From NCBI GenBank assembly GCA_039809905.1, contig JBDHVY010000001.1, positions 450,001-482,000 of the forward strand: DNA of 32,000 bases, written 5' to 3'. A program made the translations under genes and the position numbers. The notes under the pieces were generated by a model. It had not been told where the DNA came from. It was given only the letters and a program-made list of their open reading frames with translations, and did not search any database. Shown here piece after piece: positions 8,762 to 29,196 of this stretch (the stretch's first letter is position 1; each line of letters starts with the position of its first letter). This DNA is from Candidatus Babelota bacterium (lineage in GTDB: Bacteria; Babelota; Babeliae; Babelales; Vermiphilaceae).

Positions 8762-10168
8762 ATGAATAAAAAATTATTGCTTCTTTGTTTTATTTTTAAT
8801 TTCAACAATTTTCTACCACTTTCTGGTATGACTCACTATTGTACTAACCATAAAGAAAAGGTTTTATCTCAACCAAGAACATATTTTAGTCGAGAAAGTG
8901 GCACAAACGGAATAACAAGCAATGGCACATTTATCTTCAGCAGGCCTTACAATTCAAAAATTGCTACCTGCTTTGCAGGAGAATTCTCTAAGGGTCTTTC
9001 GAAAAGTTTGGATAAAAATCCTCTCTCTATAATCAATCTTTCAACAAGTACTCAAGATGGCTATACGTTTAAAAACATCGATAACCGAACTCCCGTATCA
9101 TGCATTCATCTTCTCAATGATAAAACAATGGCAATAGGGCATGGTAAAAAAATCTATATTGCACAAGATAATGGTAGTAGATTGATTTATTTCATCAATA
9201 ATTTTTTCGCTTACCCACGTCAACCTCGTAAGCTTAGTAAAGTTTTAGAACTTTCTCCTCAACTTGGTGTAGAAGATAGTATTGCCACAATTGAAAGTAG
9301 TCTATCTCATCTTATTGTGATTTCAAAAAAAGGGCACATTTCAACCTGGCAAAAAGTTAATAACGTTATTCAGGAAAGCAGCTTCAAAACATTTGACCAC
9401 ACATCTCCTTTTTTTTCTTATGCGGTAAACCAAGAAAAAAATATACTGTGCATGGGTTTAGATCATGGTAAAATTTTCACTGCCAATATAGCAAATCTTA
9501 ATAAACACACTATTACGCATTCACTTGATGCAGCTCTAAAAATTAATTGTATGAATTTCCAAAATAATACGCTTTTTGCATCTGCATTATGTGATTGCCA
9601 TCAAATACTTCCCACTACAAAAAATAGTAATCGTTGTAACAACAAACATGTACTTTTATCATTTGAAGAATGTAATCAAGCTGAAAACACTTTGCCTAAG
9701 ATGACAGGAAAAGAAACGCTCCTTTCTTTTCCTGAATTATGTCCAAAAAAAGCGGTATTATTGCCAAATGGTTTATTCGTATCACACACAGCACTATGCA
9801 ACAAAAATGTTTCTGATCTTGAGGAAGATGAAATTATTAAAGAGGTAATTGCAGTACATAGCCCTGATAATATTCAAAATCTATTAACTATTGATACCAC
9901 TTGTATGAGAGCAATCGAATATCCTGTCCATCCAATAATAACAGGTAATGAAATTCATATGCTGGGTGAAATAAGAAACGATTTTTCCAATTACATGATA
10001 TATTTTCATCGAATCTATACACCAAATAAATTTGGTATTATAGCAAAATATGCATATTACACTCAATTAATGAATTATATCAACAAACGATCTTATTTTT
10101 CAGTGACAATGCATTTTCTGATTCCTGCATTACTGTTATATGCAGCAAGTCGCTATTTTTCAGATTGA
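8762..10168 (+). CDS. Hypothetical protein with N-terminal signal peptide and C-terminal transmembrane anchor
   Basis: 468-aa ORF. N-terminus MNKKLLLLCFIFNFNNFLPLSG; extreme C-terminus SVTMHFLIPALLLYAASRYFSD. No family recognised. Confidence 0.6.
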   Translation: MNKKLLLLCFIFNFNNFLPLSGMTHYCTNHKEKVLSQPRTYFSRESGTNGITSNGTFIFSRPYNSKIATCFAGEFSKGLSKSLDKNPLSIINLSTSTQDGYTFKNIDNRTPVSCIHLLNDKTMAIGHGKKIYIAQDNGSRLIYFINNFFAYPRQPRKLSKVLELSPQLGVEDSIATIESSLSHLIVISKKGHISTWQKVNNVIQESSFKTFDHTSPFFSYAVNQEKNILCMGLDHGKIFTANIANLNKHTITHSLDAALKINCMNFQNNTLFASALCDCHQILPTTKNSNRCNNKHVLLSFEECNQAENTLPKMTGKETLLSFPELCPKKAVLLPNGLFVSHTALCNKNVSDLEEDEIIKEVIAVHSPDNIQNLLTIDTTCMRAIEYPVHPIITGNEIHMLGEIRNDFSNYMIYFHRIYTPNKFGIIAKYAYYTQLMNYINKRSYFSVTMHFLIPALLLYAASRYFSD

Positions 10169-10201: not shown

Positions 10202-10234
10202 AAAGCCCCATTCTGCATATACGAATGGGGCTTT
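10202..10234. terminator. Perfect 12-bp hairpin after the 8762..10168 gene (terminator candidate)
   Basis: AAAGCCCCATTC (10202-10213) / GAATGGGGCTTT (10223-10234) with a 9-nt loop and no long T-tract. The stem contains the same CCCCAT/ATGGGG motif used by the adjacent repeat element. Confidence 0.5.
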
Positions 10235-10295
10235 GTAAGTGATATGATAAAGCAAACTTAGTTAAAGCTCCTACAAATATTATTCCAAAACATTG

Positions 10296-10446
10296 ATTTC
10301 AAATTCTTTTATGGGGATCCTCAATAGCCCAGCTTCTATCCCCAATTTCGACGAGTCTTCATTGGGGTCCCCATATGAAGAATGAGGATGGGGTAAGAGG
10401 AATGGGTATATAAGCATTCAGCATGGGGCTAATAGAGCTATAATAC
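10296..10446 (+). repeat. Intergenic structured repeat, copy B (full length), ending 12 nt before the ddl-ddl ATG
   Basis: ATTTCAAATTCTTTT-ATGGGGATCC-TCAATAGCCCA...-CCCCAAT(10340-46)-TTCGACGAGTCTTC-ATTGGGG(10361-67)-TCCCCAT-ATGAAGAATGAGG-ATGGGG(10388-93)-...-AGCATGGGGCTA...TATAAT. Near-identical blocks recur at 19786-19960. Confidence 0.75.
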
Positions 10447-10457
10447 AAGGTTAACAT

Positions 10458-12665
10458 ATGCAAAAATTACGCATCGGTGTTCTTATGGGCGGCAAATCAC
10501 TTGAAAAAGAAGTTTCTTTCAATTCAGGCAGAACCATTTGTGATCACTTAGATACTACACGATATGTTGCAGTCCCCTTATTTCAAAAAAGTGCACACAT
10601 TTATATTTTACCATGGCACTTTTTACATCGAGGTAAAACCACTGATTTTGAACACAGACTTGCAAGTGAAGCTCAAGAAATTGCATGGGATGATTTAAAA
10701 AAACATATTGATCTTATTTATATTGCGCAACATGGCCGATATGCAGAAGATGGCTGCTTACAAGGATTTCTTGAAATACTCGATATCCCCTATATAGGAT
10801 CTGATATTTTAGCAAGTGCACTGCGTGGCGATAAACATATGCATAAAATAGTATTGCGTAATGCCGGTATTGAAGTTCCTGAATATATTGTTGTTGAGCC
10901 AGATGCAATTGATAATTTCGAAAAACATAAAGATCATATTTTTACGCAGCTAAAAACTATTGCCAGCACAGAATATATTGTAAAACCTTATAATGAAGGT
11001 TCAAGTTTAGGCATTTCTATCGCAGATAAAAATACATTAGAAGATGCATTAAAAAAAGCCTGCTACATTGAACCACATAAAAAAAAACGAGTAGTTGTCG
11101 AAGAAAAAATTATTGGCATGGAATTTACTTGTATTATTTTAACCGATCATAATACAGGTGAATTTTTTGCTTTACCACCAACAGAAAGTATTGCCGATGC
11201 TGAAGTTGGTTTTTTTGATTATGAACAAAAATATATGCCTGGACGTGGTATTAAGCGCACGCCTGCACACTGCTCACCTGAAATAACTGAGCGTATTCAA
11301 CAAACATGCATCAAAGTAATGAATGTTTTAGGATTTACCACTATGGGACGAATCGATGGATTTGTAACAAAAGATGGCAGAATAATTATTATTGATCCCA
11401 ACACACTTTCTGGCATGGCACCTTCAAGCTATATTTTTAATCAAGCAGCAGAAATTAATATGAGTCCATCACAGCTTATTAATTTTATAATTGAAGGCGA
11501 ACTTAAGCGATATAGTATGGATACTGTTAGTGATGATCAAGATACAATGGATAATTCACTCATGAATACTCATAAGACTCGCATCGCTGTTTTGCTCGGT
11601 GGTGCATCACATGAAAAAGAAACTTCCCTTGATTCAGGCCGCAATGTATTTTATAAATTATCTCCACAAAAATATGATGCCATTCCTTTATTTGTAACCA
11701 GTACACTAGAATTATATAAGCTCACACAATCACAACTTGTGCGAAATTCAACAAAAGAAATTGTCGATTTATTACAAGAATCTCAAAAAATAAAATGGTC
11801 TGATGTACCACATATAGCAGATTTTGTCTTTAATGCACTGCATGGTGGCGAAGGTGAAAATGGATCAGTACAAGGTACTTTAGAAATACTCGGATTACCC
11901 TACAATGGTTCATCCGTGCTTACCAGCGCATTATGCATGAATAAATATAAAACCAATGAATTTCTTGCAATGAATGGCTTTGATGTACCACAAAGTGTGT
12001 TCGTGAAAAAAGATGAATGGGTCAACTCTGCTAAGGTTTTCAATTATGTTGCTGAATTATCATACCCTCTTATTGTCAAACCACATGATGATGGTTGCAG
12101 CGTAATGGTGCAAAAAGTAGCCAATGATGATGAACTTATTGCATCTATCGATGCAATAATGCAAAAAAAAGATTCCGTACTTATAGAAGAATATATTACG
12201 GGAATGGAATTAACTGTTGGTGTAATTGGCAATAGTACAATACACGTACTACCGCCAAGCCAAGCAATTAGTGCTCATGCAATACTTTCGATTGAAGAAA
12301 AATTTTTGCCTGGTGCCGGCGAAAATCAAACACCAGCACCATTGCCACAAGAAACATTACGTTTTGTACAAGGTGTAATCGAAAAAGTTTATACAACAGT
12401 TGGTTGCAAGGGATACGCGCGTATTGATTGCTTCTACCAAAATGCAGCAATAAGCCCCACCGGCAAAGAACGTGTGGTAATTTTAGAAATAAATACATTG
12501 CCGGGATTAACTCCTGCAACTTGTTTATTTCATCAAGCAGCAGAAATTGGACTGAAACCAATGGAATTAATTGAAACTATCATCAATTTTGGTTTTGAAG
12601 AACATAGAGGAACAAATACCGAAAAACAAATTTCATCACAAGCTACTATTGAAATGTCTCAATAA
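10458..12665 (+). CDS. ddl: Tandem-fused D-alanine--D-alanine ligase (two complete Ddl ATP-grasp modules in one 735-aa polypeptide)
   Basis: Module 1 (about aa 1-350): RIGVLMGGKSLEKEVSFNSG, HGRYAEDGCLQGFLEILDIPYIGS, KPYNEGSSLGIS, FFDYEQKYMPG, GRIDGF, DPNTLSGM. Module 2 (about aa 375-725): RIAVLLGGASHEKETSLDSG, HGGEGENGSVQGTLEILGLPYNGS, KPHDDGCSVMV, IEEKFLPG, ARIDCF, EINTLPGL. Each aligns end to end with E. coli DdlB as remembered. Confidence 0.9.
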   Translation: MQKLRIGVLMGGKSLEKEVSFNSGRTICDHLDTTRYVAVPLFQKSAHIYILPWHFLHRGKTTDFEHRLASEAQEIAWDDLKKHIDLIYIAQHGRYAEDGCLQGFLEILDIPYIGSDILASALRGDKHMHKIVLRNAGIEVPEYIVVEPDAIDNFEKHKDHIFTQLKTIASTEYIVKPYNEGSSLGISIADKNTLEDALKKACYIEPHKKKRVVVEEKIIGMEFTCIILTDHNTGEFFALPPTESIADAEVGFFDYEQKYMPGRGIKRTPAHCSPEITERIQQTCIKVMNVLGFTTMGRIDGFVTKDGRIIIIDPNTLSGMAPSSYIFNQAAEINMSPSQLINFIIEGELKRYSMDTVSDDQDTMDNSLMNTHKTRIAVLLGGASHEKETSLDSGRNVFYKLSPQKYDAIPLFVTSTLELYKLTQSQLVRNSTKEIVDLLQESQKIKWSDVPHIADFVFNALHGGEGENGSVQGTLEILGLPYNGSSVLTSALCMNKYKTNEFLAMNGFDVPQSVFVKKDEWVNSAKVFNYVAELSYPLIVKPHDDGCSVMVQKVANDDELIASIDAIMQKKDSVLIEEYITGMELTVGVIGNSTIHVLPPSQAISAHAILSIEEKFLPGAGENQTPAPLPQETLRFVQGVIEKVYTTVGCKGYARIDCFYQNAAISPTGKERVVILEINTLPGLTPATCLFHQAAEIGLKPMELIETIINFGFEEHRGTNTEKQISSQATIEMSQ

Positions 12666-13323: not shown

Positions 13324-15861
13324 CTATTTTTTTGTATCAGAGTAGCTTCTTTTGCCAAATAAGCAACGATAATACAATAATTTAACAATCTCTGTTGCTA
13401 CAAAATAAACAGTCGTAATGGATAAGATCATAAACATAGTGTATGCCGTTGGGTGTTTAAAAAGAAATATGTTTTGACCTAACATAGTAAACGGTAACAC
13501 AATGATAATACCTGCTGCCATACTACATAAACTCAAAAGTAACATCGAGGGGCGATGAGCTTTGCAGAATGGCAAAGTGGTTCGTAATGAAAAAATAAAA
13601 ACTAACTGACCCAAAGCAGCTGCAATAAACCAACTTGTTTGCAATGTTGCTGGATCGGATTTGAAAAACATAAAAATAATAAAATCAAAAAATGAAATAA
13701 CCACACCAAAAAGAAGTACTACAAGACCTATATCTTTTAATGAATAACGCAATGGTCTTTTTAACTCTTGGTAAGTTACACTATCAGATGATATACCAAT
13801 CAATGGAAAATCAGTTATCAGATCTAAAAATAATAATTGCAAAGGCAACATAGGCAAATAATTGAGCCATAAAGAAGAAAGCGCTAAAGAATAAAAATGA
13901 CCTACATTGCAGGCAATAGTAACTTTAATATATTTTAGTGTATTGATAATTATTTTTCTTCCTTCTTCCACTCCTAACATTATATTCAATAAGCTTTTTT
14001 GTAATAATATAATTTCTGCCGCTTCTTGTGCTACACGAGCTGCATCTTTTACCGCAATACCAACTTGAGCAATTTTAAGCGCAGGCGCATCATTAATACC
14101 ATCTCCAATATATCCCACAGAATAGGTACGTTGCAAAAGCGAAATGATCTCATATTTTTGTTGAGGATTAACTCGAGCAAAAATAGTACGTCCATTCACC
14201 AGCTCTGTTTTTTCTTGTTCATTTGCTTTTTCAAAATCAGATCCAAGCACCACATTATCATGATTATTTTCTAATCCCAGTTGTTGCGCTATAAAAAAAC
14301 AGACATCTCGACTATCTCCACTCAGAATCTTAATTTGAACATCCAATGCTTGTGCCTTTTTTATTGCAGTCAAAGCCGTACTATTAAGAGGATCAACAAA
14401 TGCAATTAATCCTATTGAATCGTATTTTATATCGTCATCATTAATAAATTCTGTTTTTACCTTTTTTTCTGGGACTTCTTTTATTGCAACTGCAATAACA
14501 CGATTGCTTTTCGTTTCATTATCACTCATCCATGCTTTAAGCTTTTCCAGTTCATCTGATTGCAATGGAACACAATGTTCCACAACATATTCAAAAGAAC
14601 CCTTGGTAATAAAAAAATGAGTATTATTTTTTTGAGCAAATGTAATAGTACGATGACGCTCATAAGTGAAAGGTAATGTCTTAATCACCGTATATTGCGC
14701 AATTTCTTTCGATTGTTCGGGAGTTAATTTTTGTACAATAGCGGCATCAAAGCTATTGGATGTTATAGTAGTATCAGCAGAAAGAGCTGCAAAAATAAGA
14801 CTGTCATAATTATCGGAATTATATACGTCTTTCACTTTTAAGTTATTTTCTGTTAATGTCCCGGTTTTATCAGCACAAAAAACATTGATTCCACCCAAAT
14901 CTTCTATAGCAGATAATCTTTTTACAATTATTTTATGCTTATGGAGTGCCATAGCACCACGAGTCAAACAAAAAGTAATAACTATGGGCAATGCCGAAGG
15001 AATAGCAGTAATAGAAAGCGCTGCAGCAAAAAATAGTATATTAATAAAAGAAATATGGTCTGTTTTAATAAACAGATTAATAAAAATAATAACAGCAAGG
15101 CTTATAAGAATTAATATCAAAACAAAACGAGCAAGTTGCATACTATTTTGCGCAAGATTACTTTTAATAATGGTATGCGTAGCCAATGCAGAAATAGAAC
15201 CTAATTGTGAATGAACTCCTGTTGCAAAAACTACGCCAATTCCAGACCCATCCGTTACAACAGTACCAGCAAAAGCAGATGTCGTTGTTTTCCACAATTC
15301 TGTTATTGTTTCTTGAGGTAATTCATGCATTTTGTGGATAGGAATAGATTCACCGCTCAAACTTGCTTCATCAATCATAAGGTTATTACTATCAATAATA
15401 CGACAATCAGCAGGGACAATATCACCTGCCTTCAGCACAATAATATCCCCAGGAACAATAGTACTTACCTCAACTTTTTGATCAGTTCCATTTCGACGTA
15501 CTAAAATAGATGCTTCAAGATAAGCCTGCAACAATTCCATTGCTTTATTGCTATGATATTCTTGGTAAAAACCAATTGCAGTATTGATTATCATAATCAT
15601 GATAATAATAATAGATTCGGTGTATTGCTGTGTAAAAAAGTAAAGTATCGCAACACATACAAACATAAAAATAAAAGGATTTTTAACCTGATTGAAAAAG
15701 ATAGTCAACGCGGTTACATTCGTGCGTTGTAATCTATTAGGACCATACGTAATGAAACGCTTTTTTGCTTCTTGTTCAGTCAGCCCGCAAGACGTTGTCT
15801 GCAAATCATCAAAAACCTTTTCTACGCTCAAATTACTATAAAAAAGAAAATCTTTATTCAT
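13324..15861 (-). CDS. Cation-transporting P-type ATPase, divergent tandem paralog (TM4 motif PSALP instead of PEGLP)
   Basis: 845 aa. Motifs: Cation_ATPase_N-like GLTEQEAKKRFITYGPN, actuator LSGES, phosphorylation site CADKTGTLTEN, KGSFE, DPLN, ILSGDS, GDGINDAPALK; about 10 predicted TM helices. Confidence 0.9.
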   Translation of the reverse strand: MNKDFLFYSNLSVEKVFDDLQTTSCGLTEQEAKKRFITYGPNRLQRTNVTALTIFFNQVKNPFIFMFVCVAILYFFTQQYTESIIIIMIMIINTAIGFYQEYHSNKAMELLQAYLEASILVRRNGTDQKVEVSTIVPGDIIVLKAGDIVPADCRIIDSNNLMIDEASLSGESIPIHKMHELPQETITELWKTTTSAFAGTVVTDGSGIGVVFATGVHSQLGSISALATHTIIKSNLAQNSMQLARFVLILILISLAVIIFINLFIKTDHISFINILFFAAALSITAIPSALPIVITFCLTRGAMALHKHKIIVKRLSAIEDLGGINVFCADKTGTLTENNLKVKDVYNSDNYDSLIFAALSADTTITSNSFDAAIVQKLTPEQSKEIAQYTVIKTLPFTYERHRTITFAQKNNTHFFITKGSFEYVVEHCVPLQSDELEKLKAWMSDNETKSNRVIAVAIKEVPEKKVKTEFINDDDIKYDSIGLIAFVDPLNSTALTAIKKAQALDVQIKILSGDSRDVCFFIAQQLGLENNHDNVVLGSDFEKANEQEKTELVNGRTIFARVNPQQKYEIISLLQRTYSVGYIGDGINDAPALKIAQVGIAVKDAARVAQEAAEIILLQKSLLNIMLGVEEGRKIIINTLKYIKVTIACNVGHFYSLALSSLWLNYLPMLPLQLLFLDLITDFPLIGISSDSVTYQELKRPLRYSLKDIGLVVLLFGVVISFFDFIIFMFFKSDPATLQTSWFIAAALGQLVFIFSLRTTLPFCKAHRPSMLLLSLCSMAAGIIIVLPFTMLGQNIFLFKHPTAYTMFMILSITTVYFVATEIVKLLYYRCLFGKRSYSDTKK

Positions 15862-18394
15862 GATATTTATTCTTAAAAGAGTAGTACGTGAGTTTCACCG
15901 TTTCAGCAATTATCATGTTAAACATAATCACACCGATTAACCATGGCGCGTGTTCTAAACGCGGAGATGAGAATAAAAAGATTGTATGTCCAATAGTTGT
16001 AAAAGGTAAAATAAGAGCGGTTAAAACAACAAACAAAGAAAGCCCCATCAATAACCGTGATGGTCGATGAGCTCTGAAAAATAACATTGGCGCACGAAAC
16101 AAGAAAATAAAAATAACTTCTGAAATAGTACTAGTGATAAACCAACTTGTCTGTAATGTTTCAGGAAAATGGGATCGAAACACCAAAAAGATCGTAATAT
16201 CGGCAATAAACATAATAGTCCCAAAAAGCACAATTAAAATCGCAGCATCAGTCATATCATACGTGACCGGTTTTTGTACTTCTTGCTCACTAACATTATC
16301 GGTAGAGATAGCAATCATAGGCAAATCAGTCAGCAAATTTAAAAATAATAATTGCATAGGAAGCATTGGTGGATAATTCACTAAAAGCGAGGCTACTGCT
16401 AACGCATAAAAATGACCAAAACTAGGTGCATTAGTCATTTTCGTGTACTTCAGTGTATTAACAATAGTACGTCTTCCCTGCTCAATTCCTAAAATTACTG
16501 AACTTAAGCTTTTACGTAGCAAAATAATTTCAGCTGCTTCACGTGCAACTGAAGCAGCATCATTCACCGCAAAACTAACATGCGCCATTTTCAGTGCTGG
16601 CGCATCATTAATACCATCGCCCATGTAGCCAACAGAATATTTATCTTTTAAATGTTTAATAATTTCATATTTTTGTTCTGGATTTACTCGAGCAAAAATT
16701 GATCGGTTATGAGCTAAAAATATTTTTTCTTCTTCCGTAGCTTTTTCAAAATCAGATCCTAATACAACATTGTTAATATCTTCTTCAAGGCCAAGTTGTT
16801 GGGCAATAGTAAAGCAAACGTGTTTGCTATCGCCACTTAATATTTTTATATCAATTCCAAGCGATTTTGCTTTTTGTACCGTTGTTAATGCAGTGCTTTT
16901 GAGCGGATCTTGAAACGCAATTAAGCCAATTGTCTCATAATCATGATCGTCAGCAGTAATGTCGTAAGCTCCATTACCATAATCAGATATATTTTTAGTT
17001 GCTACTGCCAAAATACGATTTCCTTTTGATTCTTCTGTTTCAATCCATGAAGCTATAATATTTTTTTCTTCTTGATTTAAAAAAGAACATTTTTCTATAA
17101 CTACTTCCGGAGATCCTTTTATAATAAGCGTATGCACTCCTTCTTTCTGCACAAGCGCCATGCTTTGGCGTTTTTGTGGCGTAAAAGGAATATCTTTTAC
17201 CAATGTATGTTTCTTGCCATGTTCAGCATATTCCTGAGTTAATTTTTTTTGTAACGCTAACTCAAAACCTTTCGTAGCACTTTCTTTTGTTGCAGTTTGA
17301 GGCGGACAAGAAAGTACCGCATACATAATTATCTCATCAGGATTTTTAGCATAAATAGCATCGACAGTTAATGCATTTTCGGTGAGCGTTCCTGTTTTAT
17401 CAGTACAAAAAACTTCTATAGATCCCAGATCACCAATTGCAGATAACCGTTTTACGATAACATTATTTTTTTTCAGGGATGATGCACCCTGCGATAAACA
17501 AAAGGTAATAACCATCGGCAAACCTTCTGGTATTGCCGTAATGGTAAGCGCTGCAGCAAAAAGGAAGAAATCAACAAAATTAAGTTCACCACCATGCTTT
17601 ACAATGTGCACTAAAGCAGTGAGCAGTAAACTAAAAAAAATAAGATATATCGTAAATTTGGCAATAGAAACAGAACCTTTTTCAAGACTACTTTTAGTAA
17701 TCACCTGCGCCGTCAATGCTGCAAGTGTGCCAAGCGCACTTTGAGAACCAGTTGCAATAACAACACCGACACCTTTACCATGTGTTACCACGGTTCCCGT
17801 AAAACCAATATTTTCAGCTTTATACATATCGGTTATTGCTTCTTGCAATGGTTCAGCATGTTTAATAACAGCAATAGATTCACCCGTTAAACTCGATTCA
17901 TCAATGGTGAGATTATCCACTTCAATAAAACGACAATCAGCAGGAATAACATCTCCTGCTGAAAGTATTATAATATCTCCCGGCACTAATTGATTAATAT
18001 CAATATTTATTTCTGAGCTATTGCGGCGTACCGTAACTTGAGACATAAGACATTTTTTAAGAGCCTGCATTGCAGTATTGCTACGATATTCTTGGTAAAA
18101 ACCAATTCCTACATTCACTGCAATAATGACAAAAATGATGATACATTCAGCAATTTTTCCTGTGAACAAATATGCAAGACCTATCACAAAAAAAATACAC
18201 ATAAAAGGACTTAAAAGCTGGGCCTTAAGAACATCAAGCCATGTAATTTCTGTTTCTTTTATTTCATTTAAGCCATATTTCTTCAGACGATCAGCAACTT
18301 CATCCTGAGTAAGACCCTTGTGTATAGTTTTCAATTCCTTTAATGCATCTTCAATTGATAATGAGGTATATAAAGAAAAATTTTTACGTTCCAT
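15854..18394 (-). CDS. Cation-transporting P-type ATPase (P2-like, canonical PEGLP TM4 motif; Ca2+/Mg2+-type family)
   Basis: 846 aa. Motifs: GLTQDEVADRLKKYGLNE, LTGES, AIPEGLPMVITF, CTDKTGTLTEN, KGSPE, DPLK, ILSGDS, GDGINDAPALK. Its stop overlaps the downstream paralog's ATG by 8 nt (15854-15861). Confidence 0.9.
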   Translation of the reverse strand: MERKNFSLYTSLSIEDALKELKTIHKGLTQDEVADRLKKYGLNEIKETEITWLDVLKAQLLSPFMCIFFVIGLAYLFTGKIAECIIIFVIIAVNVGIGFYQEYRSNTAMQALKKCLMSQVTVRRNSSEINIDINQLVPGDIIILSAGDVIPADCRFIEVDNLTIDESSLTGESIAVIKHAEPLQEAITDMYKAENIGFTGTVVTHGKGVGVVIATGSQSALGTLAALTAQVITKSSLEKGSVSIAKFTIYLIFFSLLLTALVHIVKHGGELNFVDFFLFAAALTITAIPEGLPMVITFCLSQGASSLKKNNVIVKRLSAIGDLGSIEVFCTDKTGTLTENALTVDAIYAKNPDEIIMYAVLSCPPQTATKESATKGFELALQKKLTQEYAEHGKKHTLVKDIPFTPQKRQSMALVQKEGVHTLIIKGSPEVVIEKCSFLNQEEKNIIASWIETEESKGNRILAVATKNISDYGNGAYDITADDHDYETIGLIAFQDPLKSTALTTVQKAKSLGIDIKILSGDSKHVCFTIAQQLGLEEDINNVVLGSDFEKATEEEKIFLAHNRSIFARVNPEQKYEIIKHLKDKYSVGYMGDGINDAPALKMAHVSFAVNDAASVAREAAEIILLRKSLSSVILGIEQGRRTIVNTLKYTKMTNAPSFGHFYALAVASLLVNYPPMLPMQLLFLNLLTDLPMIAISTDNVSEQEVQKPVTYDMTDAAILIVLFGTIMFIADITIFLVFRSHFPETLQTSWFITSTISEVIFIFLFRAPMLFFRAHRPSRLLMGLSLFVVLTALILPFTTIGHTIFLFSSPRLEHAPWLIGVIMFNMIIAETVKLTYYSFKNKYHE

Positions 18395-19785: not shown

Positions 19786-19960
19786 ATTTCAAAATCTTTT
19801 ACGGGGACCTCAATAGCCCAATCTTCATTTCATTTTTATCCCCAATTTCGCCGAGTCTTCATTGGGGTCCCCGTACGAAGAATGAGGACGGGGTATAGGC
19901 ACCGATTCCGGAGGGTGGCGAAGGAATGAGTATAGAAGTATGGAGCATGGGGCTATAGTC
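19786..19960 (+). repeat. Intergenic structured repeat, copy C (full length, with extra internal GC-rich insertion), ending 4 nt before the ankyrin gene ATG
   Basis: ATTTCAAAATCTTTT-ACGGGGACC-TCAATAGCCCA...-CCCCAAT(19840-46)-TTCGCCGAGTCTTC-ATTGGGG(19861-67)-TCCCCGT-ACGAAGAATGAGG-ACGGGG(19888-93)-...-AGCATGGGGCTATAGT. Relative to copy B it carries about 21 extra nt (CACCGATTCCGGAGGGTGGCG). Confidence 0.75.
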
Positions 19961-21840: not shown

Positions 21841-22914
21841 ATGAAGCATATAAAAATAAAAATGTTTATCGCATTACTATTTCTGAGCAATGTCACCCTA
21901 GGCATGATAAGAAAAAATCCATCGCCAACTAATTATGCCCTTGAAGCAATAAAAAAGGATTCTCCCATTGAATTACATATTGCATCTATGTTTAATGCAG
22001 ATATGAGTTATAAGGATGACTATGGAAACAACTTACTATTATTAGCAATAAAAGAAGGAAAAGAGCACGCAGCTAATTATCTTTCTTCTCACCCATATTT
22101 TCAAAATAATGTAGTAATGGATGATCAAAATATTTTCGGAGAAACTGCTTTAATATGCTCATCATTACTCAATTACAAAACAACAATCTCAAATATATTA
22201 AAAATAAAAGATGTTAACCTTAACATACAAGATTATCGTCGCAAATCAGCTTTACATTGGGCTGTTTATCATTCAGACAATGATATTATTCGACTATTTA
22301 TAGAAAAGGGAGCTAATCCAACAATGCAAAACGAGCACGGAGCAACCGTTGCTTTTTATGGTGCTCTTAATAATCGCCATCTTGATCCACTAATTGCAGA
22401 AAAAATTATACTGGCAAAAGATACCTGTGGAAATACACAATTTCACTTACTTACAATGGCTAATATAAGAAAAATGACAGAAGAATCAGACACTACTCTT
22501 TGTGACTGGTTGTGTCATATTCTTAATAACTTCATAAGATATAACCTCAATTTCTTAAGTTTAAACAATTGTTGCCTGAACCCCGTAGAAACGGCATACG
22601 AGAAATATTGGAAATTATATTATAAGCACAAAACAAAAAAATCGTTTTGCTCAAAAAAACTGAATACTCAGGAAGAAATATTACATATTTTGTTACTGTG
22701 TTATTTCCAGCACAGACAAAATGATCCTTTTATTTCTTATTCTCCCTATGTACAGCAATTGAATATAGAAACAGCAATGGCACAAAAATACATCGGCAAT
22801 AAATCTTATTATCACTACTATACCATTGATACTAAAGATAAAATAAGACAAGAACTATGCGCTGATCAAACAAATATTCCAACAGTTTGGATACATCACA
22901 CTCAACAAAAATGA
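21841..22914 (+). CDS. Secreted ankyrin-repeat protein, tandem paralog 1 (C-terminally shortened)
   Basis: 357 aa. MKHIKIKMFIALLFLSNVTLG signal; ANK units (GETALICSSLLNYKTTISNIL..., SALHWAVYHSDNDIIRLFIEKGANPTMQNEHGATVAF); conserved C-terminal module EEILHILLLCYFQ...LNIETAMAQKY...IPTVWI. RBS AAGGAT-N10-ATG. Confidence 0.85.
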   Translation: MKHIKIKMFIALLFLSNVTLGMIRKNPSPTNYALEAIKKDSPIELHIASMFNADMSYKDDYGNNLLLLAIKEGKEHAANYLSSHPYFQNNVVMDDQNIFGETALICSSLLNYKTTISNILKIKDVNLNIQDYRRKSALHWAVYHSDNDIIRLFIEKGANPTMQNEHGATVAFYGALNNRHLDPLIAEKIILAKDTCGNTQFHLLTMANIRKMTEESDTTLCDWLCHILNNFIRYNLNFLSLNNCCLNPVETAYEKYWKLYYKHKTKKSFCSKKLNTQEEILHILLLCYFQHRQNDPFISYSPYVQQLNIETAMAQKYIGNKSYYHYYTIDTKDKIRQELCADQTNIPTVWIHHTQQK

Positions 22915-22922
22915 AGGATTAT

Positions 22923-24068
22923 ATGAAGCACATAAAAACAAAAATGTTTTTCACCTTATTTTTTATCGGTAATACCATCATAAGTATGGATATAATCAAG
23001 GTAGATAAAACACCATCGGTATCAACACAAAAAGCTATTGATGCAATAGAAAATGATTCACCTAAAGACTTAGCAGCAGCACTTGCAATGGGTGCAGATA
23101 TTAGTCATATAAGTAAACGTAACAATAATTTATTATTATTAGCAACAAGAAAGGGCAAAGAAAAAACGGCTCTCTATCTTGTTATTCAACCACATTTTCA
23201 AAATAATACCGTAATCAATGAACAAAATATTTTTGGCGAAACTGTTTTAATATGCGCAGCTTATCAGGGCTATAAAACATTGGTAGAAAATCTGTTAAAA
23301 ATAAAAAATATTAATCTTGATCTGCAAGATGTCCATGGCTATGATGCATTATTCACTGCGATCACACGAGAAAAAAGCGATATTACCAAATTACTTATGG
23401 AATATAATGCTAATCCAACAATTCAAAATGAACACGGAGCAACTACTGCTTTTTCTCGGAATATTCTTAGTAATTCAACAATTGATTCTTCAATAAGAAC
23501 AAAAATCATTAAAGCTAAAGATATTAATGGAAACTCTCAACTTCACCTGCTCGTAGCGGCAGATATAGGGAAAATGGCAAACACCTCAAAAAAAACCATT
23601 GATTCTTTATTTTCTAATATTCTTGAAAATTTAATAAAACATGGAACAAGTATATGGGAAATAAATAACTATAATATGCTTCCTGTAGAAACTGCATTTC
23701 AAAAATATAATGAATTACATCAACAATTCGCCTTAACAAAAAGATCTTATTTAAAAAAACGTTTAGACAATCAAGAAAAAATATTACATATTTTATTACT
23801 CTATTATTTAAAGGAAACATCAGGCAAACCAATTCTTATTTCAACACCATCACATACACACGGATTGAATATCGAAACAGTAATAGCACAAAAATACAAT
23901 CAGAATGAATGCTATTACAAAGATTATACTATTGAATATAAAGATAAACTAAAACAGCAACTCTGGGCTCATCAGATAAACATCCCCCCTGTTTGGATAT
24001 CACATGTTTACATTGCACCTACAATAATAGATGAATATGGTGATACCAATTATAATTCCTTGAAATAA
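22923..24068 (+). CDS. Secreted ankyrin-repeat protein, tandem paralog 2
   Basis: The paralog-conserved start MKHIKTKMFFTLFFIGNTIIS is at 22923; the ORF-track start 22887 lies inside paralog 1. ANK units (GETVLICAAYQGYKTLVENLL, DALFTAITREKSDITKLLMEYNANPTIQNEHGATTAF) and C-terminal module EKILHILLLYYLK...LNIETVIAQKY...IPPVWIS...EYGDTNYNSLK. Confidence 0.8.
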   Translation: MKHIKTKMFFTLFFIGNTIISMDIIKVDKTPSVSTQKAIDAIENDSPKDLAAALAMGADISHISKRNNNLLLLATRKGKEKTALYLVIQPHFQNNTVINEQNIFGETVLICAAYQGYKTLVENLLKIKNINLDLQDVHGYDALFTAITREKSDITKLLMEYNANPTIQNEHGATTAFSRNILSNSTIDSSIRTKIIKAKDINGNSQLHLLVAADIGKMANTSKKTIDSLFSNILENLIKHGTSIWEINNYNMLPVETAFQKYNELHQQFALTKRSYLKKRLDNQEKILHILLLYYLKETSGKPILISTPSHTHGLNIETVIAQKYNQNECYYKDYTIEYKDKLKQQLWAHQINIPPVWISHVYIAPTIIDEYGDTNYNSLK

Positions 24069-24139
24069 CAAAAGCTTGCGTACATTATGATTAAAAAAAA
24101 TAATTGCAGTATTCATTTTATAGAAAGGATGAATATCAC

Positions 24140-25291
24140 ATGAAGCACATAAAAACAAAATTATTTTTTTTATTACTTTTTATCAGCAACGTCATCAGCA
24201 GCATGGATATATTGCAAGCAAAAAAGAAATCATCTCCAGCAACAAAAGCTGCTCTTAATGCTATAACAAATGATTCAGTTAACTCCTTGAAAGCTGCACT
24301 TTCACAAGGCGCAGATATCAGCTGTGTAACTAAAAATGGAAATACTTTACTATTATCAGCTACCCAAAGACAAAAAAAGAAAACCTCTCTGTATCTTTCT
24401 ATTCAGCCATATTTTCAGAATGACCTCATAATCAATCACCAAAACTTTGCAGGAAAAACAGTTTTAATGGAAGCAGCCTTTCATGGATATAAAAAGATAG
24501 TAAAAAAGATATTAAAAATAAAAAACATTGGCCTCGACCTACAAGATATGAATGGAGATTTTGCTCTGCATTTTGCTGTCCGTAAGGGGCATAATGATAT
24601 TACTCGATTACTGGTAGAACATGGAGCTAACCCAACAATTCAAGACAATAACGGAATAACCATTGCTTTTTATAAAAATGTGCTTGATAACCACAACCTT
24701 GATTCAGCTATAATAAAAAAAATTATATATGCACGAGATGCTCATGAAAATACTCAACTTCACTTGCTTGCAACAGCAGATATAGAAAGCATGATAAAAA
24801 CCAACAACCAATCTATTTCAGCAAATGATTTATTTTTCATGATTGTTGAAAACTTGATACAACACGGCGTAAGCATATGGAGCATGAACGATAATAATAT
24901 GCTCGCCGTAGAAACTGCATATGAGAGATATTGTGCATTGCATCAACAGTATACAAAAAACCCAAGAATTTATTTGATGAACACCTTAAACAGTCAAGAA
25001 AAAATATTACATTTGCTGCTGCTCTATTATTTAAAGCAAACACAAAACAAACCCATTTCAATGTTACCATCACCTTATACATGCGGATTAAATATCGAAA
25101 CGGTAATGGCACAAAAACATGCAAATAATGAAAACTATTATCAAAACTATAGTATTGATACTAAAAATAAGTTAAAAAGAAAATTATGGATAAATCAGAC
25201 ACAGATCCCAATAGTTTGGGTATCACCAGCTTATGCTGGCCCCTCAATAATAAATGAATATGGCGACACCAACTATAATTCCTTGAAATAA
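24140..25291 (+). CDS. Secreted ankyrin-repeat protein, tandem paralog 3
   Basis: Conserved start MKHIKTKLFFLLLFISNVISS at 24140, preceded by AAGGAT-N10. The ORF-track start 24104 is a TTG in the spacer. ANK units (GKTVLMEAAFHGYKKIVKKIL, FALHFAVRKGHNDITRLLVEHGANPTIQDNNGITIAF). The C-terminus ends in the same EYGDTNYNSLK as paralog 2. Confidence 0.8.
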   Translation: MKHIKTKLFFLLLFISNVISSMDILQAKKKSSPATKAALNAITNDSVNSLKAALSQGADISCVTKNGNTLLLSATQRQKKKTSLYLSIQPYFQNDLIINHQNFAGKTVLMEAAFHGYKKIVKKILKIKNIGLDLQDMNGDFALHFAVRKGHNDITRLLVEHGANPTIQDNNGITIAFYKNVLDNHNLDSAIIKKIIYARDAHENTQLHLLATADIESMIKTNNQSISANDLFFMIVENLIQHGVSIWSMNDNNMLAVETAYERYCALHQQYTKNPRIYLMNTLNSQEKILHLLLLYYLKQTQNKPISMLPSPYTCGLNIETVMAQKHANNENYYQNYSIDTKNKLKRKLWINQTQIPIVWVSPAYAGPSIINEYGDTNYNSLK

Positions 25292-27986: not shown

Positions 27987-28004
27987 GATATATTATGCGA
28001 ATTC

Positions 28005-28037
28005 ATACCCCATACTCATTCTTCGCATGGGAACCCC
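28005..28037 (-). repeat. Partial copy D of the structured repeat, inverted orientation, between tal and the GT4 gene
   Basis: The reverse complement GGGGTTCCCATGCGAAGAATGAGTATGGGGTAT matches GGGGTCCCCATATGAAGAATGAGGATGGGGTAA of copy B, i.e. the CCCAT/ATGGG hairpin with the conserved GAAGAATGAG loop. Confidence 0.55.
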
Positions 28038-28071
28038 GGCTAAGAGCAGCTAAGCTGAGAATAGGATAAAC

Positions 28072-29196
28072 ATGCGAATTTTCTTTGTAACCAATAATTA
28101 TACTCCTTATGCAGGTGGCGTTGTACAATCAATTACTGCAATTACACAAGCACTTCAAGCCGAAGGACATGATGTTTTTATTATTACGCTTACTTTTTTA
28201 AAAACACATAATGATCCAGCTTACGTTATCAGAATACCGTGCCCCATAAGATTTATGTTTAAAAAGAATTATATGGCAATTCCATGGAGACCAACTCATG
28301 CCATTATGGATCTTATCGAAAAATATAAACCAGATATTATACATATTCATCATCCTTTTTTATTAGGAACTAGTGCACTTCGTGCTGCAAAAAAATATAA
28401 TATTAAGTGCATTTTTACGTATCACACTCTTTACGAACATTATGTACATTATGTACCGCTACCAAAAATCATCATTCAACCGCTTATGCATCGATCCATA
28501 CAAATATTTTGTAATCAAGTTGATGCTATTATTGCACCAAGTACAAGTATTAAAAATTACCTGTTATTACAAAACATCACAACACCTATAACGGTGATTC
28601 CAAGCCCTTTGCGCAACATTTTTACCTACAATACACACAATGTTTTAAAAAAAAACAATGATCAGTATTTTGAATTACTACTTGTTACTCGTTGTACACC
28701 GGAAAAAAACATTCCTTTTGTTTTTAATGTTTTACAATTACTACCGCTGCATTTCAGGCTCACCATTGTCGGCTATGGCTCTGAGTATGAAAGATTACAA
28801 ACACTAGCTTTTGATACATTATGCATAAGCAAAGAACGCATACAATTTATTCACAAACCATCAGAAACTGATTTGCTCAGCATATATCGAGTATCGCATC
28901 TTTTTATTTTTCCTTCGCAAACAGATACGCAAGCAATCGTTCTTGCAGAAAGTATGTCACAAGGAATACCTGTTATAGCATTAGATGGGCCAGGACAGCG
29001 AGATATTATTATTAATAGAGTAAATGGTTTTATTACTACTAATGCAAAAGAAACAGCTGAGATCATTTTAAAGATCTCAGCTGATAAAAAATTCTATGAT
29101 TATCTTGTTTCAGGAGCTCAAGCAACTGCGCATAATTATCATTCATCAATAATCATACAAAAACTGCTCATGCTCTATAATACAATTAAAATATGA
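28072..29196 (+). CDS. Glycosyltransferase family 4 (GT-B fold, group 1)
   Basis: 374 aa. N-terminus MRIFFVTNNYTPYAGGVVQSI typical of GT4. C-terminal donor-binding region FIFPSQTDTQAIVLAESMSQGIPVIALDGPGQRDII..RVNGF. RBS AGGA-N6-ATG. Confidence 0.85.
   Translation: MRIFFVTNNYTPYAGGVVQSITAITQALQAEGHDVFIITLTFLKTHNDPAYVIRIPCPIRFMFKKNYMAIPWRPTHAIMDLIEKYKPDIIHIHHPFLLGTSALRAAKKYNIKCIFTYHTLYEHYVHYVPLPKIIIQPLMHRSIQIFCNQVDAIIAPSTSIKNYLLLQNITTPITVIPSPLRNIFTYNTHNVLKKNNDQYFELLLVTRCTPEKNIPFVFNVLQLLPLHFRLTIVGYGSEYERLQTLAFDTLCISKERIQFIHKPSETDLLSIYRVSHLFIFPSQTDTQAIVLAESMSQGIPVIALDGPGQRDIIINRVNGFITTNAKETAEIILKISADKKFYDYLVSGAQATAHNYHSSIIIQKLLMLYNTIKI

Follow-up and report, generated by a model that had tools for sequence, protein, structure and literature searches.

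Small, probably mobile hairpin elements in the intergenic DNA of Candidatus Babeliales

Main finding

The G/C-rich repeats dispersed through the intergenic DNA of the window (the whole 32-kb stretch of DNA that was analysed) are probably members of a family of small, non-coding, mobile elements of Candidatus Babeliales, MITE/REPIN-like in kind. The family appears to be undescribed, to have inserted adjoining start codons and not to be a conserved regulatory RNA; a literature search found no account of it or of Dependentiae/Babela repeats. Its members share with MITEs a small size (<~300 bp), the lack of coding capacity, many dispersed copies and presence or absence at orthologous sites. The Dependentiae/Babeliales are uncultured or host-dependent protist parasites with small genomes.

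Copies in the window

Through inspection of the sequence, copies A, B and C on the forward strand and copy D on the reverse strand were placed in the window as follows.

3865..3986, + strand: copy A, 122 nt long, inserted between the native promoter-like site and the ATG of priA; covariance model score 61 bits
3897-3905, + strand: GGGGTCCCC of copy A
3913-3919 and 3933-3939, + strand: hairpin 1 of copy A, CCCCAAT / ATTGGGG
3941-3948 and 3961-3968, + strand: hairpin 2 of copy A, CCTCGTGC / GCATGGGG
10296..10435, + strand: copy B, long form; 81 bits
10340-10393, + strand: core doublet of copy B, between a 5' module ATTTCAAATTCTTTTATGGGGATCCTCAATAGCCCA and a 3' module ending AGCATGGGGCTAATAG
10325-10330 and 10426-10431, + strand: outer stem of copy B, TAGCCC / GGGCTA
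19786..19958, + strand: copy C, long form, with its core doublet at 19840-19893; 84.5 bits
28004..28071, - strand: copy D, a complete 68-nt doublet at the transaldolase-GT4 junction; 70 bits

The four copies are real and far above chance, and the four clear copies of a preliminary description of this DNA are borne out by block identities, shuffles and model scores alike. B and C have a 62-nt block in common at 92% identity, which D matches in inverted orientation at 85-86%; a 35-nt core pattern occurs twice in the window against 0.00 expected from shuffles, and AGCATGGGGYTA three times against 0.17. The scores listed above, from a covariance model built on the core, correspond to E-values of 6e-16 to 5e-23. 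With a G+C content of 40-45% the copies stand out from the window (~34%), and their alignment yields a common core of CCCCAAT..ATTGGGG, T and CCCCnTnC-GAAGAATGAG-nnnGGGG followed by a TATAA-like sequence.

Copies A, B and C are in sense orientation and end 0-24 nt 5' of start codons, C carrying two internal insertions relative to B and ending 6 nt 5' of the ATG of the ankyrin gene (19965), and D is antisense to the adjoining transaldolase and GT4 genes. Several limits differ from those first proposed: copy A had been located correctly and its extent of 3895-3977 is widened to 3865-3986, copy B keeps its start at 10296 and loses the end of its range (10446, now ~10435), and D is indeed inverted but is complete, the 33 nt at 28005-28037 formerly called a partial copy being a portion of it. 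The TATAAT at 10439-10444 probably belongs to the native flank of B and not to the element, as it lies 3' of the point where the similarity of B, C and a third long copy (L016) stops and is followed by ACAAGG, which is common to the relatives.

The genes around the copies have features of their own. Copy B is situated between ddl and a lineage-specific gene, an ORF of 468 aa (8762-10168) that follows a GT2 gene and has no Pfam match; in five relatives its place holds nothing or an unrelated minus-strand ORF. The ddl gene (10458-12665) encodes Ddl-Ddl, a 735-aa protein in which two complete D-Ala-D-Ala ligase modules are fused; it is kept at 58-81% identity among the Babeliales-type contigs listed and often labelled MurC by JGI. 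Two tandem P-type cation ATPase genes (13324-18394, - strand; 845 and 846 aa) overlap by 8 nt and are ~77% identical in stretches, the relatives having one or two copies, one of them broken in L024. Directly 3' of the 596-aa ankyrin gene lie three tandem paralogous ankyrin-repeat genes (21841-25291; 357, 393 and 395 aa) with 65-80% DNA identity, whose copies are fewer or different in the relatives.

Hairpin units, doublets and long forms

The core consists of two adjacent hairpins, CCCCArY..rYTGGGG and CCCCrTrC-GAAGAATGAG-..yGGGG, separated by T and followed by TATAA. Both hairpins are backed by covariation: across 19 copies the pairing of the two local hairpins extends to 89.8% of cells, both partners are altered in 7 of the 15 pairs, the observed covariation score was equalled by none of 500 shuffles and controls with slid partners were paired at 28-53%. 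In hairpin 1 the double changes include A-U to G-C and U-A to C-G, and in hairpin 2 alternation among AU, GU and GC; in one diverged copy a change of GGGG to GAGG is matched by CCCC to CCTC in both hairpins. Folding of single sequences as RNA gave weak z-scores of -0.7 to -1.6.

Each hairpin is best folded on its own strand, as seen from the A-C mismatches in hairpin 1 and the G-T pairs in hairpin 2. Read in this way the unit (35-45 nt) runs GGGG(T/A)CCCC, a variable stem of 3-4 bp, a loop, the returning stem, GGGG and (A/T)TAAA, with purine-rich loops (mean 73% purine) of 9-15 nt, of which GAAGAATGAG is kept across genomes. As both hairpins represent one kind of unit, on opposite strands, the core (~65-75 nt) is shown to be an inverted doublet whose units overlap at GGGG-T-CCCC. 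Units also occur singly, in the form TCTTAAnnGGGGTCCCC-hairpin-GGGGyTAAAAA.

In the long forms B, C and L016 an outer stem is formed by pairing of a shared 5' GGGGAyCCTCAATAGCCCA with a shared 3' CATGGGGyTA. Modules shared by other copies are either AAGAATCACTATGGTGAC, on the 5' side, or AAACAnnCTCAGGrCGArCGG, on the 3' side. In a long-form copy of L031 (21130-21290) the core is enclosed by one more inverted repeat, made of the outer arms GCGCTCATTCTGAAC / GCTCAGGACGAGCGC; L022, L011 and L020 have the same 3' module, CTCAGGrCGArCGG. An origin of B and C through nested insertion was discarded, the inner core having no flanking duplication. The ends of the elements are short, imperfect inverted repeats (TTTATCCCCA... 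/ ...TGGGGTATAA) with termini that vary between copies; the two ends could pair with each other, and this pairing showed no covariation.

The architecture resembles that of REP/REPIN sequences, being made of short, G/C-rich, imperfect intergenic palindromes, non-coding and multi-copy, that occur as single units and inverted doublets. Elements of this type would present their hairpins as ssDNA to a RAYT or an IS200/IS605-type Y1 transposase and move by peel-and-paste with no duplication, which would suit both the compensatory changes that keep the stems, G-T pairs included, and the preference of each hairpin for its own strand. REP superfamilies, however, are defined by a GTAG or CGTC tag (PMC3733652), whereas GTAG, CTAC, CGTC and GACG were found near the hairpin foot in none of 37 Babeliales units, and the purine-rich loops of these are long. 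We consider a REP/REPIN origin unlikely, for neither a Y1 transposase nor a RAYT was found among the ORFs beside the sampled copies and at least two insertions, A and D, carry target duplications of 8 and 9 bp.

Orthologous sites in the relatives

To follow the copies between genomes, the window was compared with five syntenic loci of relatives (L023, L024, L025, L030 and L031), in which Ddl is 70-81% identical. Gene order is kept across all five and the element positions are not. Upstream of priA, L023, L024 and L025 have the uninterrupted sequence ...TTTGTATACTGATACTATG running directly into TTTATCAGAG (its 5' part also written ...TGATACTATG), with a single copy of the target, and in the window this sequence is split by the 122 nt of copy A. 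The transaldolase-GT4 junction is likewise empty in L024 (TTTCCTTAAGATCCTTATGCGTATC) and in L030. The duplicated targets and the signals around them are as follows.

3827..3855, + strand: native priA promoter-like site CTTACA-17-TATACT, conserved in the relatives
3857..3864, unstranded: 5' copy of the copy A target-site duplication, 8 bp, AATACATG, single in the relatives
3987..3994, unstranded: 3' copy of the same duplication, AATACATG, which includes the priA ATG (3992-3994)
3862..3960, + strand: upstream ORF of 32 codons, opened by the duplicated ATG and reading into copy A
27995..28003, unstranded: 5' copy of the copy D target-site duplication, 9 bp, ATGCGAATT
28072..28080, unstranded: 3' copy of the same duplication, ATGCGAATT, identical with nt 1-9 of the GT4 gene
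27995..28069, + strand: upstream ORF of 24 codons from the duplicated ATG, with its TAA 2 nt before the GT4 ATG

Set against the empty sites, these repeats demonstrate target duplication for A and D. Transposition by Y1 enzymes (IS200/IS605) is not known to make a target duplication. Further direct repeats flank a 43-nt single unit in L010 (TTAATTTTT) and copies in L018 (ATAAAGA) and L007 (AAATAGCGA). Across 32 copies, flanking repeats of at least 8 nt were found at 7, against 10% in mismatched-flank controls, and of at least 9 nt at 4, against 3.4%, a modest enrichment; none was detected at B, C or most copies. Target duplication is likely to be a property of the whole family.

The relatives are in turn filled at other places. 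At the transaldolase-GT4 junction L031 has an independent insertion, in the opposite orientation and of a different subfamily; in L030 a degenerate copy precedes the priA promoter; and in L024 a single unit is found 20 nt 5' of the gene orthologous to the window's 2697 gene. The corresponding sequence of the window, L023 and L025 is an unbroken ATTGCTyTTAAAAAGGAGAGGCAATG. L023, L024 and L025 each have a different element in the short spacer between T2SSF and a hypothetical gene, which is free of any in the window. We regard this pattern of presence and absence as decisive for the behaviour of mobile DNA and against a conserved regulatory element, because orthologous sites are empty in relatives that are filled elsewhere. 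Copies thus appear to be gained and lost quickly, and the comparison of filled with empty sites demonstrates mobility for A and D.

A cis-regulatory RNA or DNA cassette, that is a shared leader, promoter or operator co-regulating priA, ddl, the ankyrin gene and others, would account for the sense orientation of A, B and C near start codons, for the covarying structure with its loop kept across genomes and for the -10-like 3' ends (GGGGyTAwAA). It is largely refuted by the five relatives, in none of which is an element upstream of priA, ddl, the ankyrin gene or GT4 conserved with the window. Copies in antisense and between convergent genes, the position of D in antisense inside an operon junction and the negative promoter and Rfam scans given below also count against it, and we judge such a cassette very unlikely.

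A different feature between priA and RNase T

A fifth, degenerate copy (E) had been suggested after priA, as a remnant of the family. The hairpin in question matches the covariance model weakly (11 bits, E ~1) and belongs, as terminal hairpin, to another and larger feature; it is similar in style to the dispersed family and not a copy of it, and its orthologues bound this other feature.

5968..6000, + strand: 'copy E' hairpin, CCCCAAC 5970-5976 / GTTGGGG 5984-5990, similar to hairpin 1
Window 5960-6175, L024 7775-8365, L031 8770-9275: priA-RNase T feature, 45-50% G/C, with long inverted arms in L024 and L031

In L024 and L031, CCCCAAC(GG)TCTAAGTTGGGG bounds both ends, in inverted orientation, of a G/C-rich non-coding feature of ~500-590 nt that lies, as in the window, between priA and RNase T. 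The window keeps ~210 nt of it (5960 to ~6175), 78% identical to one arm of L024. Two of the five relatives have the feature, which is absent from L023, L025 and L030; in L031 a core doublet is embedded in it. The feature gave no Rfam, tRNA or tmRNA match, and may be either an ncRNA of unknown kind or a non-autonomous element of larger size.

Orientation and possible effect on neighbouring genes

As divergent and convergent regions are uninformative for orientation, it was counted in co-directional regions only, which hold ~11-13 sense and 7 antisense copies, a bias short of significance; between convergent genes there are four copies, and many lie in divergent promoter regions. The co-orientation with the downstream gene that was seen in the window does not extend to the family on these counts. 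Nor is an ending 4-15 nt before an ATG, reported earlier, a rule across the family, although it describes the window. An apparent sense bias of the single units (14 of 17) was set aside, since it rested on divergent and convergent copies and the informative ones are ~5-6 sense against 2 antisense.

The element had also been proposed to donate a promoter or a 5' leader. A scan of four regions with the sigma-70 consensus gave no promoter-like site in the 3' ends of the copies, the GGGGyTAwAA ends being -10-like with no -35 or TGn partner, and the conserved promoter-like site of priA lies 5' of copy A, before the upstream copy of the ATG. Donation of a promoter finds no support in either observation. 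In the relatives the -10 box of this site is 6 nt before the ATG; in the window the priA start comes 31 nt past the stop of the 32-codon upstream ORF. Copy A now separates priA from its conserved promoter, which is probably leaderless, and would most likely be transcribed as a new 5' leader. In the case of D, the upstream ORF stopping 2 nt before the GT4 ATG would keep translational coupling in the transaldolase-GT4 operon. Donation of a leader is plausible for A and D, and a regulatory reading is unsupported beyond such passive leader capture.

A selfish origin followed by a secondary host role is possible, if doubtful; the hairpins might stabilise or process mRNA, or the upstream ORFs might buffer translation. 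Roles of this kind have reportedly been proposed for REP, ERIC and Correia elements. Such a role would draw on copy A, which must be transcribed if priA uses the conserved promoter, on the close spacing of the upstream ORF of D and the GT4 start, and on the core sequence kept across diverged genomes; yet the requirements of mobilisation can account for that conservation, and copies are freely lost between relatives.

Intrinsic terminators with a common stem sequence would also appear as G/C-rich hairpins in intergenic DNA, and a genuine terminator-like hairpin at 10203-10240 is likewise built with CCCCATTC/GAATGGGG. The hairpins of the family, however, are followed on neither strand by a T-run, the sequence after them being A-rich; a terminator scan gave 0 sites in four regions, many copies occupy divergent promoter regions, and target duplications with empty sites mark insertions. 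That the repeats are terminators seems extremely improbable. The hairpin at 10203-10240 (AAAGCCCCATTC-tgcatata-cGAATGGGGCTTTG) stands 3' of the 468-aa ORF, has a CCCCAT/ATGGGG clamp as in the repeat family and matches the covariance model weakly (10.9 bits).

Distribution of the family

Beyond the window, JGI metagenome contigs with 34-38% G+C gave 16 loci matching the core pattern, several of them on contigs of 270-440 kb, with cores near-identical to those of the window. The covariance model, built from 16 cores and applied to the window and to related metagenome loci, gave ~34 non-redundant matches over ~200 kb, many of them diverged and ~30 outside the window, and the syntenic loci of the relatives yielded further copies. 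The elements measure 43-173 nt and occur in the window at a density of 4 copies in 32 kb. All are intergenic and none has coding capacity or a gene-sized ORF. Homologues of the Ddl-Ddl protein carry the label Candidatus Babeliales (Dependentiae/TM6), which places the source, an intracellular bacterium, in that group. In L019 (1066-1234, - strand) two family elements lie in tandem downstream of rplL (L7/L12), in what we take by analogy with other bacteria to be the rplL-rpoB spacer, the downstream ORF being unannotated.

Rfam 15, proposed as a check in the preliminary description, gave 0 matches in the window at gathering or permissive thresholds and only tRNAs in four related loci; the best sub-threshold matches reached 21 bits, the gathering threshold being 93. 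Together with the empty orthologous sites, this upholds the original view of a REP/MITE-like element and not a riboswitch. Scans of IMG/VR found no family member, three matches there to TCTTAANNGGGGTCCCCA being rejected as chance occurrences with no covariance model match, and a scan of a genome collection that does not hold the source genome with the core pattern found two chance matches only, both in Actinobacteria. A paralogue search with the ankyrin protein for other parts of the source genome returned orthologues and eukaryotic ankyrins only.

Between genomes with proteins of only 70-80% identity the core stays ~88% identical, a point that counts against the mobile-element reading and calls for a constraint from mobilisation, horizontal spread or a host function.

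Comparison with known elements

The Correia elements of Neisseria (CREE/NEMIS), ERIC and RUP are close in general design, as they too are non-coding, 70-170 bp long, with inverted-repeat ends and target duplication, found near gene starts, probably co-transcribed with their neighbours and variably present between related genomes. The Babeliales elements differ from the Correia type in duplicating 8-9 bp and not TA, in their short, imperfect terminal repeats, in keeping two autonomous local hairpins in place of one long terminal-repeat stem and in having no detected promoter-like site at their ends. BOX elements of Streptococcus pneumoniae are similarly modular, with optional 5', core and 3' modules mixed between copies, and to our knowledge have no target duplication. 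We know of no obvious sequence resemblance of the Babeliales family to Correia, ERIC, RUP or BOX elements.

Rickettsia palindromic elements (RPE) often insert in-frame inside genes. They are comparable as palindromic repeats spreading in a reduced, obligate intracellular genome, and the Babeliales units differ in that all copies are intergenic or at start codons and carry no tag. The RPE form a CGTC-tagged class (PMC3733652).

Proposed mechanism of insertion

In the mobile-element reading, which we consider the probable one, the 8-9-bp duplications would point to a staggered cut by a DDE-type transposase acting in trans. The hairpins are the probable recognition structure of the mobilising enzyme, which would explain their compensatory changes. 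A and D would have landed on start codons, the duplication regenerating an intact ATG on the 3' side and leaving a short upstream ORF that runs into the element. In a compact genome the A/T-rich DNA near start codons may be among the few places that tolerate insertion, which would explain the start-codon pattern noticed at first.

Some findings count against this reading. A Pfam search of ten ORFs flanked by sampled copies found no transposase, these ORFs being HU, L7/L12, S6, ankyrin and LexA-like proteins or having no match, and no duplication was detected at most copies. The varied termini with short imperfect inverted repeats and no covariation between the ends would, moreover, be unusual for a single DDE transposase. 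The units may instead have moved by a mechanism coupled to the start of transcription or translation, or be a domesticated 5'-leader or translational-coupling cassette under selection across Babeliales, a pair of options that we hold to be quite unlikely. Mobilisation coupled to start regions would explain why both resolved insertions duplicated a start codon and the A-rich target, and a retro-type or single-strand route could agree with duplications that differ in length and with 5' ends that vary.

Significance

As small, probably mobile elements, these repeats form an undescribed family of a kind that is already known, and open no new class of biology. They explain G/C-rich intergenic islands that could otherwise be mistaken for regulatory RNAs, and may serve to mark insertion polymorphism between strains in metagenomes. 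Copies A and D offer natural examples of insertions into start codons that would be tolerated because the duplication restores the ATG, and the family as a whole would show mobile DNA persisting in a reduced genome.
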